From Escherichia phage JS98: a DNA stretch of 64,000 nt. The stretch's first letter is position 1; the number at the start of each line of letters is the position of its first letter. Below the pieces are notes generated by a model, which was not told the DNA's origin, searched no databases, and saw only the letters and a list, made by a program, of their open reading frames with translations. The translations under genes were made by a program, and so were the position numbers. Shown here piece by piece: positions 2,000 to 47,078 of the stretch. The stretch is from sequence record NC_010105.1; one strand, written 5' to 3'.

Positions 2000-2290
2000 T
2001 TAGCACATTGCTGAAGAGGAGACCCAGGCACCAACTGTAACGACACCGTTTTCAACTTCACCGCCATTGTTTTCAATTTCATCTTTAAACCACTGGGAGC
2101 ATTCATAACCAACAGGGTAGTATGTACGTCCTGAGCCATAATCACCTGTTCCGAATTGAATACCATACTTATCGGCAATAGCTTCACATTTGTGTTCGAT
2201 GATATCCACTTTATTCAGAAGAGCATAGATAGCCTTTTCTGCAGATTTCTCGTCGTTGTATTCAGGGATTTCAATTTCAATTTTATTCAT
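2000..2290 (-). CDS. small acidic protein, C-terminal W-x-S-S-S-x-x-Cys family, paralog 1 (96 aa)
   Basis: ATG start; ends ...GAWVSSSAMC-stop. Confidence 0.7.
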   Translation of the reverse strand: MNKIEIEIPEYNDEKSAEKAIYALLNKVDIIEHKCEAIADKYGIQFGTGDYGSGRTYYPVGYECSQWFKDEIENNGGEVENGVVTVGAWVSSSAMC

Positions 2291-2640
2291 GATTTACATT
2301 CCTTAATAAAGGTTTCAAGGTCATTACGGTTGGTTTGTTTTACATACTCATTATAATTAGCCATCTCTAAAGCATATCTCTTACGGATGGGAGCATTCAA
2401 AGCATTTGTATGGCAAATATCATACACGAGAGGGATAAAATAAGCCACGACGGCCGGAGCGATTATCATATAGAAACCCATCTCAATAGGCATGACTCCT
2501 TCGATTGCAGCCATAACTGTGGTCATTACCAGACCAACCAGACCGCCGAGCATACCTGTGACAATTCCCGTGAATAAGGAAATAGCAATATCATATTCAG
2601 CCAATTGATAAACATGCGATGAAAGACTAGGCCGTTCCAT
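2287..2640 (-). CDS. small integral membrane protein (about 117 aa, 3 predicted TM helices)
   Basis: ORF track start 2676 is TTG; ATG at 2640 with AGAGG SD; hydrophobic stretches ISLFTGIVTGMLGGLVGLVM, MGFYMIIAPAVVAYFIPLVY. Confidence 0.55.
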   Translation of the reverse strand: MERPSLSSHVYQLAEYDIAISLFTGIVTGMLGGLVGLVMTTVMAAIEGVMPIEMGFYMIIAPAVVAYFIPLVYDICHTNALNAPIRKRYALEMANYNEYVKQTNRNDLETFIKECKS

Positions 2641-3169
2641 TTTGAACCTCTTTAGCGTATTCACGGCATTCAGCAATAAAACGATTAAGCTTCCGTTGTT
2701 GTTTACGACTTTCTAATGTGTACTCAGCAGTTAAGATACCAAGCTCGGCTTTATCATAATTTTTAATATCGGTGTAAGATGGCCGACGGTCGACCATTCC
2801 AAATACATCACCATTTTCTAAAGCCACATAGCATACTAAATGGTAATCATCGTCTGCCATATTAAGAAGCACACAATCATTGCTCTCATTTAAAGAATAT
2901 ACTGAATAACGTAGTCCAGCGAATTCCACTCGTTGAATAGCCAGATTTACGTCAATAATTTCCAAAGCATCTTCAAAAGAAAGGTCTTCAGCTAAAGCAA
3001 AAATAAAAGGTAATTTGGTAGTATCGCCACGGCTAGATGTTCTGCTTAAGAAATCGTTTGAATAGCCTAGGTCTTGGCGAATTCTATAAAGAACTGAATT
3101 GGTTTCATGGGAAAGACCACTATTTTTAAACCAATCAATATTTGATATAAGGTTATCATATAAACTCAT
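2627..3169 (-). CDS. hypothetical protein (180 aa)
   Basis: ORF track; ATG with strong GGAGGAGAGGAG SD. Confidence 0.6.
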   Translation of the reverse strand: MSLYDNLISNIDWFKNSGLSHETNSVLYRIRQDLGYSNDFLSRTSSRGDTTKLPFIFALAEDLSFEDALEIIDVNLAIQRVEFAGLRYSVYSLNESNDCVLLNMADDDYHLVCYVALENGDVFGMVDRRPSYTDIKNYDKAELGILTAEYTLESRKQQRKLNRFIAECREYAKEVQNGTA

Positions 3170-3192
3170 AATATTCTCCTCTCCTCCAAATA

Positions 3193-3210
3193 GGGAGACC
3201 GAAGTCTCCC
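3193..3210 (-). terminator. hairpin terminator
   Basis: GGGAGAC-CGAA-GTCTCCC stem-loop after gene 3218-3811. Confidence 0.45.
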
Positions 3211-3217
3211 GGTAACA

Positions 3218-3811
3218 TTACTTAAGTGAATTAATGTAGTCTTCGATATCGGCTGAAGTCGTGTCCATTCCAACTTGTGGGCCTTTAAACGTTTCTACAC
3301 GCAGCAGAGTATCTTCAATATCAATCTTAGTCAGTGCAGCTATTTCAACCACATCATCGGCAGTAGCAATACCAAGGGCGGCCATATTACGAGTTTCACG
3401 GATGTACTCGAGCTTAACAGCCAGTTCCTGACGAGAGTCATCAAGTTCCTTGACCTTCAGTTTAATTTCATTACGCATTTCGATATAATCGTCAGCTTTC
3501 TTACGAAGTTGAGTGGCTGTACGACGATAAAGGAGGCCGAGTTTAGCATGTACCTGAACATCGGCGCCTTCGGCAATCAGTTTACGAATTTCGCGTTCTT
3601 TAGAAGCAGCCAGTTGGTCTTTTTCATTTGCCAATGCACGAATGCGTTTTTCTTCATTCACAGACTTAACATGAGCAGTCTGGAGTTCGGTAATTTTATC
3701 AATCAGGGTAGAAGCAGCTTTAGTATACTGGTCTTCGATTGACAGGTTCTGAGTCATTGCGGTACCCAGTTTAGAACGGATGAACTCAACAATTTTCTTT
3801 AAAGTATTCAT
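3218..3811 (-). CDS. coiled-coil protein, possibly PspA/IM30-like (197 aa)
   Basis: ORF track 3218-3886 trimmed to ATG 3811 (AGGAAA SD); heptad-rich sequence; own early promoter at 3855-3884. Confidence 0.55.
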
Positions 3812-6710: not shown

Positions 6711-6839
6711 AAACACCTCAAATAAAATTAAGTAAAGTAAGTTTGATTAATAGACCTTGTCTATTATGAAAGGCTCTTTGAGGGAAGAACCTTTGGTAAT
6801 AGAGGGTATTAATGATAGAGTAATAATATCACATAATTC

Positions 6840-7316
6840 TTAAAGCATATCAAGTGCTTTCACATCAGGGATTTTAATTTCTTCTTCAATAATATACAGC
6901 TTAACGTAAGAAATTACACGGATGAAATCACCATCATATTCACAAGCCATACCAAGGAGCTCAGTAAGGGCTTCATTCAAGTAGTATTCTTCTTCGTCAT
7001 CGTTCAGCAAGGCTTCTAAGTCTTGGATACCGAGGACTTTATCTAAAAATTCAGGAGTCAATTGGCCTGATTTTACACCAGATTCAATGTGGGCAATAAC
7101 CAGATGCTTAACTACGTCCCATTCCGAATTACCACATTTATCCGGGTTGTTGCAATGAGAACCATGGAAAAGTTCTAGGATATATTTGTACTGTTGGATT
7201 TCATGTTCTTCTACGCCAAATACAGTCTGGGTTTTATAGTTATCGCCATCATTTTCCCAGGTTTCAATTTCAATTGCATAACCTTTAGGGATAATTTGTC
7301 CGAATTTAATATTCAT
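6840..7316 (-). CDS. hypothetical protein (about 158 aa)
   Basis: ORF track start 7325 is GTG; ATG 7316 overlaps upstream stop (ATGA coupling). Confidence 0.55.
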   Translation of the reverse strand: MNIKFGQIIPKGYAIEIETWENDGDNYKTQTVFGVEEHEIQQYKYILELFHGSHCNNPDKCGNSEWDVVKHLVIAHIESGVKSGQLTPEFLDKVLGIQDLEALLNDDEEEYYLNEALTELLGMACEYDGDFIRVISYVKLYIIEEEIKIPDVKALDML

Positions 7317-7603
7317 TGTGGCCACATATTAATGTAATCAAGTTTAATAGAAGCAATTTTCAAAGGATTTTTAAAGATGTCATATTCGACCAACCCATTT
7401 TCATTTGCCGTATAAAAAGTAAAGTTAACAGAATTATAGCGTTGGCTGTTAACTTTGAGTTTAACATCGCTTGAACTACGGCCAATATTAACCTGTTGAA
7501 CATCAAGCACAGCATCTTTGCCGTAATTTCGAATCAACAACTCAGCTGCAACCTGATCGGATTTATAGCCATTCTCTGGATTAGTAACCTTAACGTATAA
7601 CAT
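7313..7603 (-). CDS. hypothetical protein (96 aa)
   Basis: ORF track; ATG start directly after upstream stop. Confidence 0.55.
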   Translation of the reverse strand: MLYVKVTNPENGYKSDQVAAELLIRNYGKDAVLDVQQVNIGRSSSDVKLKVNSQRYNSVNFTFYTANENGLVEYDIFKNPLKIASIKLDYINMWPQ

Positions 7604-8005
7604 TTAACCCTCGTCTACAATAGTGTGGGTATTGGCATTAACAATCTGCCACCAGCCAAAACGATTAGAACCGTAAAGAGGCTTATTCTCGTTTTCTTTA
7701 ATGATATCGCGCAGTTCATCTTCAGAGAAGGCTTTAGCGATTAAATCAGTATACCCACCGCGTGGATAATAATTATCACCCGCAAACAAAAGGAAATTTA
7801 CCTTTCCGGAAGGAACATATGCTTCCTTAGGATACTTGTTTCCTGCGTGGTCGACAACTTCAATATAACGGTAAGGAATATCAGTACTTTCAACCCATTG
7901 CCATGCTGCTGCAGGGGATTCAAAAGCATCAACACCTAAACGATTATCTTCATCTTTAGACGGATTATTTTCGTAATCCGCATATACATAATATTCAACG
8001 TTCAT
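7604..8005 (-). CDS. hypothetical protein (133 aa)
   Basis: ORF track; TAATG overlap with upstream gene. Confidence 0.55.
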   Translation of the reverse strand: MNVEYYVYADYENNPSKDEDNRLGVDAFESPAAAWQWVESTDIPYRYIEVVDHAGNKYPKEAYVPSGKVNFLLFAGDNYYPRGGYTDLIAKAFSEDELRDIIKENENKPLYGSNRFGWWQIVNANTHTIVDEG

Positions 8006-8190
8006 TATTCACCTTTAGAGATTTTATCCATAACGAAAGAGATTGAACCAATTAAGAATGCCACTACTAAAGAGATTGTATTCTCGGAAGTTGTAAGCAA
8101 ATCCAACATGAATCCTGCAAACATACTAAAGCCAAAAGCAGTAACGGCGGTCAGTGCAGTAACATTTCTAATTAATTCACAACGTTTCAT
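8005..8190 (-). CDS. small membrane protein (61 aa, 2 predicted TM helices)
   Basis: ORF track start 8202 is TTG; ATG 8190 with GGAGAA SD; early promoter upstream. Confidence 0.5.
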   Translation of the reverse strand: MKRCELIRNVTALTAVTAFGFSMFAGFMLDLLTTSENTISLVVAFLIGSISFVMDKISKGE

Positions 8191-8212
8191 TTTATTCTCC
8201 AATCACTCATTT

Positions 8213-8257
8213 GTTTTGATAGGGCTATAGTATCATCAACTAAAGCCCGTTGTAAAC
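8213..8257 (-). promoter_or_regulatory. early promoter with conserved downstream box
   Basis: Minus strand GTTTAC-N19-TACTAT-AGCCCTATCAAAAC. Confidence 0.45.
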
Positions 8258-40227: not shown

Positions 40228-41787
40228 ATGAAAAAGAATGCATTAGTTCAAAAATGGTCCGCTCTGCTGGAAAACGAAGCTCTTCCTGAAATCGTTGGTG
40301 CTTCTAAACAAGCTATCATCGCTAAAATTTTCGAAAACCAGGAACAAGACATCCTGACTGCTCCAGAATATCGTGACGAAAAAATCTCCGAAGCATTTGG
40401 TTCTTTCCTGACTGAAGCTGAAATCGGTGGTGACCACGGTTATGATGCTACCAATATCGCAGCTGGCCAGACTTCTGGTGCTGTAACTCAGATTGGGCCG
40501 GCAGTAATGGGTATGGTTCGTCGTGCTATTCCTCATCTGATTGCTTTTGATATTTGTGGTGTTCAGCCTCTGAATAACCCTACCGGTCAGGTATTTGCAC
40601 TGCGTGCAGTATATGGTAAAGACCCTATCGCTGCAGGCGCTAAAGAAGCTTTCCATCCGATGTATGCTCCGAACGCTATGTTCTCTGGTCAGGGTGCTGC
40701 TGAAACTTTCGAAGCACTGGCTGCAAGCAAAGTTCTGGAAGTTGGTAAAATTTATTCTCACTTCTTCGAAGCTACCGGTTCTGCACACTTCCAGGCTGTT
40801 GAAGCTGTAACCGTTGATGCAGGCGCTACTGATGCCGCTAAACTGGATGCTGCTGTTACCGCTCTGGTTGAAGCTGGTCAGCTGGCTGAAATCGCTGAAG
40901 GTATGGCTACTTCTATCGCAGAACTTCAGGAAGGTTTCAACGGTTCTACCGATAACCCGTGGAACGAAATGGGCTTCCGCATCGACAAACAAGTTATCGA
41001 AGCTAAATCTCGTCAGCTGAAAGCAAGCTACTCTATCGAACTGGCACAGGACCTTCGTGCAGTACACGGTATGGATGCAGATGCTGAACTGTCCGGTATC
41101 CTTGCTACCGAAATTATGCTCGAAATCAACCGTGAAGTTATCGATTGGATTAACTACTCTGCACAGGTTGGTAAATCTGGTATGACCAACACCGTTGGCG
41201 CTAAAGCTGGTGTGTTTGACTTCCAGGACCCGATTGATATCCGTGGTGCTCGTTGGGCCGGTGAGAGCTTTAAAGCCCTTCTGTTCCAGATTGATAAAGA
41301 AGCAGCCGAAATCGCTCGTCAGACCGGTCGTGGTGCTGGTAACTTCATCATCGCTTCCCGTAACGTAGTTAACGTACTGGCTGCAGTTGATACTTCTGTA
41401 AGTTATGCAGCTCAAGGTCTGGGTCAGGGTTTCAACGTTGACACAACCAAAGCAGTATTTGCCGGTGTTCTTGGTGGTAAATATCGTGTTTACATCGACC
41501 AGTATGCTCGTTCCGATTACTTCACCATCGGTTATAAAGGTTCCAACGAAATGGACGCAGGTATCTACTATGCTCCGTACGTTGCGCTGACTCCGCTGCG
41601 TGGTTCCGATCCGAAGAACTTCCAACCGGTAATGGGCTTCAAAACTCGTTACGGTATCGGTATTAACCCGTTCGCTGACCCAGCTGCTCAGGCGCCTACC
41701 AAACGTATTCAGAATGGTATGCCTGACATCGTTAACAGCCTCGGTCTGAATGGTTACTTCCGTCGCGTATATGTTAAAGGTATCTAA
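40228..41787 (+). CDS. 23: gp23 major capsid protein
   Basis: 519 aa (T4 521); synteny; codon usage of a highly expressed gene. Confidence 0.9.
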   Translation: MKKNALVQKWSALLENEALPEIVGASKQAIIAKIFENQEQDILTAPEYRDEKISEAFGSFLTEAEIGGDHGYDATNIAAGQTSGAVTQIGPAVMGMVRRAIPHLIAFDICGVQPLNNPTGQVFALRAVYGKDPIAAGAKEAFHPMYAPNAMFSGQGAAETFEALAASKVLEVGKIYSHFFEATGSAHFQAVEAVTVDAGATDAAKLDAAVTALVEAGQLAEIAEGMATSIAELQEGFNGSTDNPWNEMGFRIDKQVIEAKSRQLKASYSIELAQDLRAVHGMDADAELSGILATEIMLEINREVIDWINYSAQVGKSGMTNTVGAKAGVFDFQDPIDIRGARWAGESFKALLFQIDKEAAEIARQTGRGAGNFIIASRNVVNVLAAVDTSVSYAAQGLGQGFNVDTTKAVFAGVLGGKYRVYIDQYARSDYFTIGYKGSNEMDAGIYYAPYVALTPLRGSDPKNFQPVMGFKTRYGIGINPFADPAAQAPTKRIQNGMPDIVNSLGLNGYFRRVYVKGI

Positions 41788-41802
41788 TATACACCTTATT
41801 AT

Positions 41803-41825
41803 GGGAGACTTCGGTCTCCCATTCT
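41803..41825 (+). terminator. terminator after gene 23
   Basis: GGGAGAC-TTCG-GTCTCCC followed by T-rich run. Confidence 0.55.
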
Positions 41826-41835
41826 TGTTTCTATA

Positions 41836-42167: not shown

Positions 42168-42175
42168 TATAAATA
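42168..42175 (+). promoter_or_regulatory. late promoter TATAAATA (gene 24)
   Basis: Exact motif. Confidence 0.6.
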
Positions 42176-42203
42176 AACATATACCCTCAATAAGGAAAGC
42201 GCA

Positions 42204-43484
42204 ATGGCAAAGATTAACGAATTACTGCGCGAGTCAACAACTACTTCTAGCAACTCATTGGGTCGCCCTAATCTTGTTGCTTTGACCCGTGCTACAACCA
42301 AATTGATTTACCGTGATATTATTGCTGAACAACGTACTAGCCAGCCTATTGCTGCATTGTATGGTGTCAAATATCTTACTCCTGATAATGAATTTAGCTT
42401 CCAAACTGGTGCCGTTTATGGCGGTGAAGTTGGTTCTAAAGACCGTGAAACTATCCCAGAACTCACAGATAAGGCCCAGGCTATTGCCAAGGGTGAATAT
42501 TTCAAGTATCAGAACATAGTTTATAAGGCTCTTCAAGCAAGCCCACTCGCATCCACTAGCGCTACAGAATTGGCTGAGGCCCTTCAAGAAGGTTTGGTGT
42601 CATTAACATGTCGTCTGGTTCCTGATGCGGCTCACACAGAGAAATTCGAAGCAGGTGATGTTGAAATTAGTAATGCAGTATTCCAGGTTAATAAATGGAA
42701 CGCACCTGTTAAGTCTCGTAAACTTAAAACCGCTTTGACTGTAGAACTAGCCCAAGACATGGAATCCAATGGCTTTGACGCCCCTGCGTTCTTAGAAGAC
42801 CTTTTAGCCACTGTAATGGCTGATGAAATCAATAAAGACGTACTACAATCCTTGATTACCGTATCTAAACGTTACAAAGTAACTGGTGTATCTGATAATG
42901 GTATTATTGATTTGTCCTATAATTCCGCCCCAGAAAGTGCACGTAAATTATATGAAATGGTTTGTGAGATGAATTCTGAAATTCAGAAAACCACTTCTTA
43001 TTCAGGTACGTTTGTTGTCGCATCTAGTCGTGCTGCTGCTATGCTCGCTGGTTCAGGTTGGTTGAAACATAAACCAGAAGATGAAGCTTGGCTCCCAGAA
43101 ACTGCTTACGGTTATTTGATTAATGGATTGCCTGTATTCTGTGATGTTAATAGTCCTTTAGATTATGTTATCGTAGGCGTTAAAGAAGATTACGGCGGTA
43201 ATGAAGTAGTTGGTTCTATTTTCTATGCTCCATATACCGAAGGTCTGGATTTAGACGACCAAGAACATGTTGGTGCGTATAAAGTTATTGTAGACCCTGA
43301 TAGTTTACAACCGGCTATTTCTCTGATGGTTCGTTATGCACTTTCAGCAAACCCATATACCGTTGCTAAAGATGATAAAGAAGCTCGTGTTATAGACGCA
43401 ACTAATATGGATTTAATGGCAGGTCAGAGTAACATGTCTTATCTGCTTGGTGTTAAACTTCCTCCGATTATTTACGAGGCATAA
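42204..43484 (+). CDS. 24: gp24 head vertex protein
   Basis: N-terminus MAKINELLRESTTT.SNS.GRPNLVALTRATTKLIY matches T4 gp24 as recalled; late promoter 42168-42175. Confidence 0.9.
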   Translation: MAKINELLRESTTTSSNSLGRPNLVALTRATTKLIYRDIIAEQRTSQPIAALYGVKYLTPDNEFSFQTGAVYGGEVGSKDRETIPELTDKAQAIAKGEYFKYQNIVYKALQASPLASTSATELAEALQEGLVSLTCRLVPDAAHTEKFEAGDVEISNAVFQVNKWNAPVKSRKLKTALTVELAQDMESNGFDAPAFLEDLLATVMADEINKDVLQSLITVSKRYKVTGVSDNGIIDLSYNSAPESARKLYEMVCEMNSEIQKTTSYSGTFVVASSRAAAMLAGSGWLKHKPEDEAWLPETAYGYLINGLPVFCDVNSPLDYVIVGVKEDYGGNEVVGSIFYAPYTEGLDLDDQEHVGAYKVIVDPDSLQPAISLMVRYALSANPYTVAKDDKEARVIDATNMDLMAGQSNMSYLLGVKLPPIIYEA

Positions 43485-44768
43485 ATGAAAAAGATTAATG
43501 CATTAATACAAGAATCAACTTTGACGGCGGCCAACCAGGTCGCCCGTCCTAATCTTCTTTCATATACCCAGGCAACTAATAAAAGAATTTTTAAAGCCCT
43601 TGTTGCTGAACAAAAAACTACTCAACCTGTTGCAGCATTATATGGTGTCCGTGTTTTAAACCCAGACGATAAAATGACTTATCTCGGCGGAGCCACTTTT
43701 GCAGGCGAAATTGGTATGTTCGAACGTAAAAACATTCCTGAGTTCACCGATAAAGACGAAGCATATGCTGTTGGCGATATGTTCCAATTCGAAAGTGTGG
43801 TTTTCAAGGTATTAGAAGCTTCTCCGTTTGCAGGAACAACTGAAACCGATTTGAGTGAAGTTATTTCAGAAGCTATTGCCGCGGGCCATATTCGTATGAT
43901 GTCTGATGCAGCCTTTACCAATAAATTTGAAAAAGGTCATCCTGAGATTGCTGAAGCAGGGTTCCGTATTGATAAGTGGCAGACTGAAGTTAAATCGCGT
44001 AAACTTAAAACTTCTTTGACTGTGGAACTGGCCCAGGATTTAGAATCCAACGGGTTTAATGCACCGGACTTTATAGACAATATTTTGGCTATTCAAATGG
44101 CTGAAGAAATTAATAAAGACGTATTACAGTCCTTAATTACAGTAAGTTCTCGTTTTAAAGTCCAAGGAGTTTCTGAGAAAGGTGTCTTGAACTTAACAGA
44201 CCCACAATACGATAACGCCCAAGACCGAGCACGTACCTTGTATTACTATATGTGTGAAATGAATTCTGCTGTTCAACGCCAGACTTCGTTTGCAGGTACT
44301 TATGCAGTAGCTTCTTCTCGCTGCGCTGCTATTTTAGCTGCATCCGGTTGGGTTGAGAAAAAAGAAGACCAAGACGAATTAGCTTATGGCGTATTAAAGA
44401 ACGGTCTACCACTTTATGCTGATATGAACAGCCCGTGTGATTATGTTATTGTCGGTGTAAATGCTCAGATGGGTGAAGGGCAGACGGTCGCATCTTTGTA
44501 TTATGCGCCTTATACGGAAGGGCTCGAAGAGGTTGATGATGAAGGTGATACTTCAGTAGGTGAATTCAAGGTTATTGTAGACCCGGATTCATTGCAACCT
44601 ACCATATCTTTATTGGCTCGGTATGCATTGACTGCGAATCCTTATACCGTCGCTAAAGACGACAAAGAAGCTCGTATTATTGATGGTGCGGATATGGACA
44701 AAATGGCTAATCAAAGTCAATTGAGTTCTTATCTTGGTGTAAAACTTCCTCCATTGGATAAAAACTAA
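43485..44768 (+). CDS. gp24 paralog (second head vertex protein-like gene)
   Basis: 427 aa, alignable along full length with the upstream gp24 but diverged (MKKINALIQESTLTAANQVARPNLL...). Confidence 0.8.
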   Translation: MKKINALIQESTLTAANQVARPNLLSYTQATNKRIFKALVAEQKTTQPVAALYGVRVLNPDDKMTYLGGATFAGEIGMFERKNIPEFTDKDEAYAVGDMFQFESVVFKVLEASPFAGTTETDLSEVISEAIAAGHIRMMSDAAFTNKFEKGHPEIAEAGFRIDKWQTEVKSRKLKTSLTVELAQDLESNGFNAPDFIDNILAIQMAEEINKDVLQSLITVSSRFKVQGVSEKGVLNLTDPQYDNAQDRARTLYYYMCEMNSAVQRQTSFAGTYAVASSRCAAILAASGWVEKKEDQDELAYGVLKNGLPLYADMNSPCDYVIVGVNAQMGEGQTVASLYYAPYTEGLEEVDDEGDTSVGEFKVIVDPDSLQPTISLLARYALTANPYTVAKDDKEARIIDGADMDKMANQSQLSSYLGVKLPPLDKN

Positions 44769-44789
44769 AAAGGGACCTTACGGTCCCTT
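44768..44789. terminator. bidirectional terminator between gp24 paralog and rnlB
   Basis: AAAGGGACC-TTAC-GGTCCCTTT with A-run and T-run flanks. Confidence 0.55.
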
Positions 44790-44796
44790 TGTCGTC

Positions 44797-46229: not shown

Positions 46230-47078
46230 TTAATAAACGTAATCGTATATAATACCAGCTTCTAAAGCGGTGCGATGAATAATTCGTCCATTACGAGATT
46301 CTTGTACATCAACCTCCGGATAATCGGTAATCATTTTTTGAAGTGTATATCGGTGCAAATAATACGGGCTATCTGGGTCATCAGTTTTCCAGTCTTGTCC
46401 GGCAAGAGTCATTTTCTGAATTTCATCCATAACCCACCAACCACACCAGATATAAGCTGAATTACGTACTGGCAATGGATGAACGTAAGGTAATTCGCCA
46501 TCTGGAACAGGTGCGACTTTAGCTGTGACTGTTACATTACCAGTTTTTGTGACAGTTGCCTGGTTATAATCTGTAGCAGATACAACAACAGAAACTTCAA
46601 TTAACTGGGAACCTTCGGCGCTTGTGTCGATTGCTAAAGTATCCGTGGTGCCAACTACAGGAGAACCGTCTTTCTTCCAAGAATAGGCAAAAGTAGCACC
46701 AGCAGGCGCACCGGCTACAGTAGCTTTAAAAGAAGCCGGAGTTCCTTCAGGAACATTAATTGATTCTGGGGTTAATGTAACAGAAACACCTGACATTGTT
46801 TTATTCTGGATAGTTAAAGTTGTCTCAGCCTCAGCAGTTTCCGGTTCACCGTCTGCCGGAGTGGTAGTTGCAACAACTTTAATAGTCTTACTGCCTGCTG
46901 GACCAACAGCGACATAAGCCATTGCTGCAGTTACAGAAGATTGAGGAACGCCATCAACGGTCCAGACAAATGATTCGGTACCTTCAGCTGCAGCACCGGA
47001 ACCAGTCGCAGTGAAATTGGTTGTTGCTCCAATAACGGCCGTAGCCGCCAAAGGAGCAATATCTACGGTATAAGCCAT
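46230..47078 (-). CDS. hoc: Hoc head outer capsid protein
   Basis: Thr/Val-rich beta-rich N-terminal part followed by Trp-rich C-terminal module (AYIWCGWWVMDEIQKM); synteny next to inh. Confidence 0.75.
   Translation of the reverse strand: MAYTVDIAPLAATAVIGATTNFTATGSGAAAEGTESFVWTVDGVPQSSVTAAMAYVAVGPAGSKTIKVVATTTPADGEPETAEAETTLTIQNKTMSGVSVTLTPESINVPEGTPASFKATVAGAPAGATFAYSWKKDGSPVVGTTDTLAIDTSAEGSQLIEVSVVVSATDYNQATVTKTGNVTVTAKVAPVPDGELPYVHPLPVRNSAYIWCGWWVMDEIQKMTLAGQDWKTDDPDSPYYLHRYTLQKMITDYPEVDVQESRNGRIIHRTALEAGIIYDYVY

Follow-up and report, generated by a model that had tools for sequence, protein, structure and literature searches.

Tandem genes for two head vertex proteins, 24a and 24b, in Escherichia phage JS98 and related T-even phages

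The 24a-24b locus and its expression signals

The DNA studied here is a stretch of 64,000 nucleotides from Escherichia phage JS98 (sequence record NC_010105.1), referred to as the window, and its subject is a tandem pair of genes, 24a and 24b, that both encode a capsid vertex protein of the gp24 type. The pair closes the T-even head cluster, which runs in the order 20-67-68-21-22-23-24a-24b, and is followed by a convergent rnlB, a 24.3-like open reading frame (ORF), hoc, inh and uvsW (Table 1). Over the region of interest the sequence is 99.8% identical to Escherichia phage MN04 of the Dhakavirus JS98 species, about 96% to IME08, IME281 and IME341, and about 86% to JS10 and Bp7. At the junction of the two genes the stop codon of 24a directly abuts the start codon of 24b (TAA|ATG at 43482-43487).

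An initial sequence-only reading of this DNA had described two proteins of 426-427 amino acids that align end to end, and this was borne out, as were the gene boundaries it gave. In a BLASTP comparison 24a and 24b align over their full length with 56% identity, 76% positives and 10 gap positions (E 5e-180), a similarity far above chance level, and the shared blocks that had been singled out, RKLKTxLTVELAQDxESNGFxAPxF....LAxxMAxEINKDVLQSLITVS and YAPYTEGL, are both found in both proteins. Each matches the Pfam family PF07068 (Gp23 family; E 3e-97 for 24a and 4e-98 for 24b, residues 19-417/419) as well as PHROG 138, and each retrieves the T4 gp24 chains 1YUE, 5VF3 and 7VS5 from the PDB (E 2.5e-198 for 24a, 4e-150 for 24b), while T4 gp23 reaches an E of only about 1e-11 against either of them in the same sequence search.

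The duplication as such is already known and is annotated in more than 100 public phage genomes. The records of JS10 and IME08 list "24a" and "24b gp24 head vertex protein", that of VR5 names "capsid vertex protein I" and "II", and many others simply carry "capsid vertex protein (x2)". The JS98 genome paper of Zuber et al. (2007) reportedly also mentions a duplication of gene 24. The genomic finding is thus a correct re-discovery of an annotated feature and not a new one; the question which of the two copies occupies the vertices is nevertheless a legitimate one. What the present analysis adds is that 24b, as judged from comparative sequence data, appears to be an old and separately conserved subfamily that is always coupled to 24a and carries a distinctive signature at a putative subunit interface.

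Table 1. Features of the 24a-24b locus and its surroundings. Positions refer to the window unless another locus is named.
Feature	Position	Strand	Remarks
Intrinsic-terminator-like hairpin and T-run	41801..41830	+	3' of gene 23; stem ATGGGAGAC-TTCG-GTCTCCCAT, then TCTTGTTTCT
ORF of 93 amino acids	41836-42117	-	between gene 23 and 24a; PHROG 6003 match (E 5e-50), function unassigned
T4-type late promoter box	42168..42175	+	TATAAATA; 29 nucleotides upstream of the 24a start
Shine-Dalgarno-like sequence	42192..42199	+	AAGGAAAG; ahead of 24a, conserved in orthologous loci
Gene 24a	42204..43484	+	capsid vertex protein, 426 amino acids, T4 gp24 ortholog
Shine-Dalgarno sequence for 24b	43476..43479	+	GAGG; within the last codons of 24a, 5 nucleotides before the ATG
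Gene 24b	43485..44768	+	second paralog of the vertex protein, 427 amino acids; belongs to an old gp24b clade of its own
GC-rich hairpin with flanking T/A runs	44769..44795	.	AAAGGGACC-TTAC-GGTCCCTTT; after 24b
Short Hoc-like protein	46230-47078	-	282 amino acids; PHROG 1149, C-terminal part only
Extra genes after 24b in FBB1-like contigs	L017 4890-6427; L018 6345-7900; L020 2634-4140	+	

The signals around the pair look like those of one late, translationally coupled operon, with a single late promoter box, abutting codons, a Shine-Dalgarno sequence for 24b and one terminator. The terminator 3' of gene 23 sets the transcript of that gene apart from the 24a-24b unit. The late box TATAAATA ahead of 24a recurs before the first gp24 gene in each of 11 related loci that were inspected, T4 and RB69 among them, and in the window no further copy was found between 41780 and 44770 with one mismatch allowed. 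An internal late promoter for 24b was thereby rejected, as the box is present within neither gene even at that tolerance, and sigma-70-like matches, sought as a promoter for 24b, were fewer than in shuffled sequence. Without a promoter box of its own, 24b would hence depend on read-through from 24a. The combination of the GAGG motif with the abutting stop and start codons suggests translational coupling of 24b to 24a; GAGG together with an abutting or overlapping stop and start is seen in seven loci (L002, L003, L004, L006, L007, L008 and the window), and the FBB1-like loci show a weaker Shine-Dalgarno sequence ahead of 24b. The hairpin behind 24b has an equivalent in 10 of 10 loci examined and probably serves as a bidirectional terminator common to the 24a-24b operon and the convergent rnlB. 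The entire layout of promoter, 24a, 24b and terminator is kept in 10 loci.

Distribution, descent and selection

The sequence-only reading had proposed to look for the paralog in other T4-like genomes, and the pair is indeed widespread. A 500 bp query spanning the 24a/24b junction matched 116 GenBank phage records with at least 80% of its length covered at one site, and the tandem is carried by Dhakavirus, Gelderlandvirus, Kanagawavirus, Marfavirus and the Erwinia FBB1-like phages; the loci inspected were those of Dhakavirus JS10, VR5 and MN04, Yersinia phage P8, Kanagawavirus Q7622, Gelderlandvirus STML-198 and Marfavirus PhiKpNIH-6. Erwinia phage FBB1 and metagenome contigs encode more divergent b-type proteins (65-70% identity), and there, too, the b-type gene stands in tandem behind an a-type gene. 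In the IMG/VR database, an a-type gene lies immediately upstream in 16 of 16 loci with a b-type gene, and over all 27 b-type loci examined the b-type gene follows the a-type directly, with abutting or overlapping stop and start codons, so that not a single lone b-type gp24 was met among them.

One gp24 gene only is present in T4, RB69, Karamvirus, Jiaodavirus, Tegunavirus, Moonvirus Merlin, Kanagawavirus PEi20, Serratia 4S, Pectobacterium PM2 and EcS1, and likewise in Acinetobacter, Proteus, Krischvirus and Aeromonas relatives. A tblastn search with four a/b queries detected no remnant of 24b downstream of the single gp24 gene in 15 loci, yielding chance matches with E > 0.3. In two Karamvirus loci a gap of about 578 bp without an annotated gene separates the single gp24 gene from rnlB (L010 3750-4326, L015 3785-4361), and here, too, no 24b remnant was detected. 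The record of Q7622 (L004, OL989991.1) is inconsistent in its labels: 24a at 2219-3499 is named 'major capsid protein', and a minus-strand gene for 487 amino acids in the hoc position (6788-8251) is named 'capsid vertex protein'. In the FBB1-like contigs two extra plus-strand genes, for 334-352 and about 165 amino acids and without a Pfam match, stand right after 24b and before the convergent rnlB block; they are found neither in the window nor in the Dhakavirus loci.

In neighbour-joining trees with 200 bootstraps, the distance method on which all phylogenetic statements made here are based, the 24a protein of the window falls into a clade of upstream copies that is nested with the gp24 proteins of T4, RB69, Karamvirus and Moonvirus, the inclusive group having 100% support. 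Tree and gene position together identify 24a as the ortholog of T4 gp24. The claim that the first copy matches T4 gp24 closely thus stands as to its placement in the same clade, although 'closely' is a generous word for 70% identity. The downstream copies without exception group in a clade of their own, which has 100% bootstrap support and a long stem of 0.17-0.21. The identity of 24b is 56-57% to T4 gp24 as well as to 24a, in agreement with its earlier description as a diverged paralog. The possibility that the second copy is the true gp24 ortholog was therefore rejected, and the scenario named beforehand as refuting, in which the first copy would moreover be a recent intruder, is not seen in the tree.

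The b clade joins near the base of the Tevenvirinae, with a support of only 33-35% relative to the gp24 proteins of Acinetobacter, Jiaodavirus and Tegunavirus phages, and the identities of 24b and 24a to outgroups are nearly equal (49 vs 50% for a Proteus phage, 44 vs 43% for Krischvirus). The a subtree and the b subtree each show the split between FBB1-like phages and the crown, identity between the two copies of one genome is 53-58% in 15 of 15 genomes compared, and the pairwise distances among a copies and among b copies in these 15 genomes are correlated with r = 0.94 (Mantel test, reached in 0 of 5000 permutations). Taken at face value, the trees place the origin of the pair before the divergence of the genera that carry it. 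If the pair does predate these genera, repeated loss of 24b would have to be assumed for the single-copy lineages that lie among them in the tree, T4 being one, and such a loss is a possibility for phages with a single gp24.

At a shallower level the pair is mosaic, as evidenced by a comparison of window positions 42204-44768 with L002, L003, L008 and L029. The 24a protein of the window is most similar to those of VR5/JS10 (94-96% identity, vs 89-90% for YenP8/L029), whereas 24b is most similar to those of YenP8/L029 (94-95%, vs 90-91% for VR5/JS10). These opposite nearest relatives point to a recombination breakpoint near or within the pair among the Dhakavirus relatives.

This mosaicism also bears on a different account of the origin, in which 24b would stem from a distantly related phage of the T4 type and have entered beside the resident gp24 gene by unequal recombination, with lateral spread of the 24a-24b cassette thereafter. 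We regard a capture of this kind as a tentative possibility, compatible with any of the functions proposed for 24b below. It would explain the basal and poorly supported branching of the b clade, although long-branch attraction could equally draw b toward the base of a neighbour-joining tree, and it accounts for the equal distance of 24a and 24b from the outgroups, which is not expected of a recent duplicate with acceleration in b only. The clean single-copy loci are in line with it as well. Nevertheless, a b-type gene as the sole gp24 was met in no lineage, every one of the 27 b-type genes sits directly after an a-type, and the mirrored subtrees and correlated distances rather fit a single ancient event, with co-inheritance and losses thereafter.

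The strength of selection on both copies was estimated as the ratio of nonsynonymous to synonymous change (dN/dS, Nei-Gojobori method) between the window and its orthologs, for 24a and 24b in unsaturated comparisons. The ratio is 0.04-0.09 for 24a and 0.02-0.09 for 24b, and 0.04-0.20 for gp23 across all six comparisons; purifying selection on 24b is as strong as that on 24a and on gp23, for which a range of 0.04-0.15 was used in this comparison. Between 24a and 24b themselves, the proportion of differing synonymous sites (pS) is 0.5-0.97, near saturation in every 40-codon window, including blocks that are 75-85% identical at the protein level. The conserved blocks shared by the two genes are thus due to constraint and not to recent gene conversion, and conversion between the copies was rejected as an explanation.

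Proposed use of two vertex proteins in one head

Both proteins retain the features of a vertex subunit that is processed during head assembly. In T4 the first 10 residues of gp24 are removed by the gp21 protease (PMC9546572). The N-terminus of 24a, MAKINELLRE|STTT, is identical to that of T4 and retains the 10-residue propeptide with the gp21 site, and that of 24b, MKKINALIQE|STLT, keeps the I-x-E-S site; E10 and S11 are invariant in 45 aligned gp24 sequences, and an N-terminus of the form (L/I)-x-E|S-T is present in every b-type sequence. Trimming of 10 N-terminal residues by gp21 is probable for both products.

A fold model was made for 24b with AlphaFold2 (AF2), and 24a was placed by its 70% identity to 1YUE. 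The model (mean predicted local distance difference test, pLDDT, 73; predicted template modelling score, pTM, 0.70) shows an HK97-like fold with an insertion domain. Its best match is T4 gp24 as seen in capsids, with template modelling (TM) scores of 0.81/0.84 over 413 columns for 5VF3_a and of 0.79/0.87 for 7VRT at a root mean square deviation (rmsd) of 3.2 A, compared to about 0.53-0.62 for gp23 chains. The cores of the A-domain and the P-domain are the most conserved parts between 24a and 24b, with 65-85% identity in windows starting at residues 164-214 and 80-85% in those starting at 363-373.

The residues that set the b clade apart were sought among 38 gp24 sequences. A site qualified if its conservation among the 27 non-b members was 85% or more and if 90% or more of the 11 b-type members had another residue there. 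Fourteen sites emerged (T4 numbering): V25L, A26S, T32N, L34R, Y36F, K56R, Y57V, Y72F, Y108F, P244Q, I261V, Y267F, K328N and E335Q. L34, Y57 and E335 are invariant in 27 of 27 non-b sequences, and the 24b protein of the window contributes to all 14 clade-fixed substitutions (e.g. R34, V57 and Q335). Control clades of 4-11 sequences gave one signature site each, a two-sequence Acinetobacter control five. Residues 25-72 hold eight of the 14 b-specific sites, compared to 29 of 182 eligible sites overall (Fisher p = 2.5e-4, with the boundaries of this cluster set after the data had been seen). In the T4 head, residues 26-29 of gp24 pair through a beta interaction with the I-domain linker of the next subunit in the same pentamer, and linker 1 comprises roughly residues 60-81 (PMC9546572). 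With eight sites in the N-arm and I-linker, the b-specific changes gather in those parts of the protein that join one subunit of a pentamer to the next, and mutual contacts of the b-specific sites across this interface are a candidate feature.

On this basis we lean towards reading 24a and 24b as two functional vertex, or penton, proteins that are made together late in infection and built into the head. A late promoter would give rise to one bicistronic message from which 24a and then, by translational coupling, 24b are produced before transcription ends at the terminator. The gp21 prohead protease would cut 10 N-terminal residues off both products, which would then be incorporated at the five-fold vertices of the prolate head; that both copies enter the capsid as vertex proteins is most likely. 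In this scheme 24a would be the direct counterpart of T4 gp24, and 24b a long-maintained, subfunctionalised paralog co-inherited with it since before Dhakavirus, Gelderlandvirus, Kanagawavirus, Marfavirus and the FBB1-like phages diverged. A conserved N-arm/I-linker contact of its own in 24b suggests that each paralog prefers its own kind, and we infer that the two possibly form separate homopentamers, which would share the 11 non-portal vertices without being interchangeable.

Several points weigh against this interpretation. In the prolate T4 head all 55 gp24 subunits are structurally alike (PMC9546572), so that geometry alone does not demand two vertex proteins, and close relatives with one gp24, namely T4, RB69, Karamvirus, Moonvirus and even Kanagawavirus PEi20, build similar heads. 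The codon adaptation index relative to gp23 (24a, 0.46; 24b, 0.39; background range, 0.39-0.46) does not separate the two genes. The significance of the N-terminal cluster has to be read with its post hoc boundaries in mind, as does the candidate status of the interface contact. Finally, a full-text literature search found no proteomic or structural paper on a phage with 24a and 24b, nor one that addresses which copy occupies the vertices or what 24b does, and the T4-genomes review and the papers on IME08 and LHE83, among others, yielded neither discussion nor proteomics of the two.

The most durable functional alternative is that the two copies are redundant or serve as a conditional back-up, either paralog alone being able to fill all 11 vertices and the second copy helping under particular conditions. 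These may be temperature, osmotic or chemical stress on the capsid, the folding environment of another host, or host defences that detect one of the vertex proteins. The presence of the pair is patchy among close relatives and even within Kanagawavirus, where Q7622 has two copies and PEi20 one, which shows that a capsid of much the same kind can be built with one gp24. The statement in the sequence-only reading that T4 gp24 can be bypassed by gp23 mutations also holds, single gp23 substitutions being sufficient (PMC9546572), and the GenBank note on T4 ties gene 24 to an 'os' phenotype. Simple redundancy, however, rarely holds dN/dS at 0.02-0.09 in both copies over such a deep divergence; it leaves the 14 b-specific changes at otherwise conserved sites unexplained, and conditional expression finds no separate promoter in genes that are translationally coupled. 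We therefore consider a mere back-up rather doubtful. The gp23 of the window (40228-41787) has the wild-type residues N381, A387 and K420 at the three known gp24-bypass positions and is not of the bypass type, a point in favour of the reading with two vertex proteins. One of the three T4 bypass substitutions, K420R, is natural in the gp23 of Jiaodavirus, Karamvirus myPSH1140, Acinetobacter Minot, Aeromonas Asfd_1 and the FBB1-like contigs L017 and L019, each of which encodes a gp24 all the same.

A more specific form of the favoured reading with two penton proteins assigns distinct homopentamers to geometrically different classes of vertices, for instance the apical vertex and the two rings of five. 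We hold this to be unlikely; if true, these would be the first tailed phages known with two dedicated penton proteins, and the single gp24 of T4 would be secondarily simplified after loss of an ancestral 24b.

It is still less probable that 24b has left the vertex altogether to become an assembly or nucleation factor, a protein of a special non-vertex position near the pentons or the portal, or a decoy outside the virion. The long stem of the b clade and its changes at sites invariant elsewhere (L34R, Y57V, E335Q) form the pattern expected after a change of function, but 24b has retained all domains, its length and the protease site, its predicted fold is closest to capsid-bound gp24, the domain cores are the very parts most conserved relative to 24a, and nothing in the sequence indicates a new activity. 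A decaying, non-functional duplicate, for which the bare fact of duplication is the sole argument, is effectively refuted by the selection analysis, as the 24b reading frame is intact in all of about 27 loci, its dN/dS is low, and b-type proteins remain 66-95% identical across the compared b-carrying lineages at saturated synonymous sites.

The T4 head is the reference model for the construction of large prolate capsids, and a single vertex protein is all that this model contains. In a substantial part of the T-even phages, therapy candidates of the JS98/JS10 group included, a second, strongly conserved one is kept. To learn whether the two share the vertices, segregate among them or are used conditionally would sharpen the picture of how the head is assembled and kept stable, and the answer would also show whether T4 itself has lost a component.

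Neighbouring genes and known systems

The position between gene 23 and 24a is variable in content. The small minus-strand ORF found there in the window is annotated as hypothetical in JS10, VR5, YenP8 and MN04; the same slot holds the homing endonuclease gene segD in T4 and PhiKpNIH-6 and endonuclease insertions in IME08 and IME341. Its codon adaptation to gp23, 0.575, is above that of its neighbours. Further downstream, the hoc locus varies among close relatives, and JS10 (L002 7373-8306) and VR5 (L003 7079-8297) carry a plus-strand gene there that is annotated as 'tail fiber-like' or hypothetical.

The pairs of JS10, IME08, VR5, STML-198, Q7622 and PhiKpNIH-6 represent the same system as that of the window and differ in nothing essential. 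They share the order of gene 23, a small minus-strand ORF or seg gene, 24a, 24b and the convergent rnlB, along with the same junction and terminator, and relative to these counterparts the proteins of the window are 73-96% (24a) and 79-95% (24b) identical.

The gp24 of T4 (1YUE, 5VF3, 7VRT/7VS5) resembles both proteins in its length of about 427 residues, its propeptide with a gp21 site and its HK97-like fold with an insertion domain, and its gene, like the pair in the window, is located just after gene 23 and has a late promoter. T4, however, has one gene 24 with rnlB directly after it where the window has two, and 24b, at 56-57% identity, differs from T4 gp24 at the 14 signature sites that T4 keeps in common with 26 other gp24 sequences.

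A precedent for such a tandem exists in the older duplication from gp23 to gp24, which in the view of the literature (PMC10580926) likewise produced a downstream copy of a capsid gene that then specialised. The products of that event, gp23 and gp24, are now only about 21-22% identical and have distinct roles in hexamers and pentamers, respectively, whereas 24a and 24b are 56% identical, with at most a putative division of labour between them.

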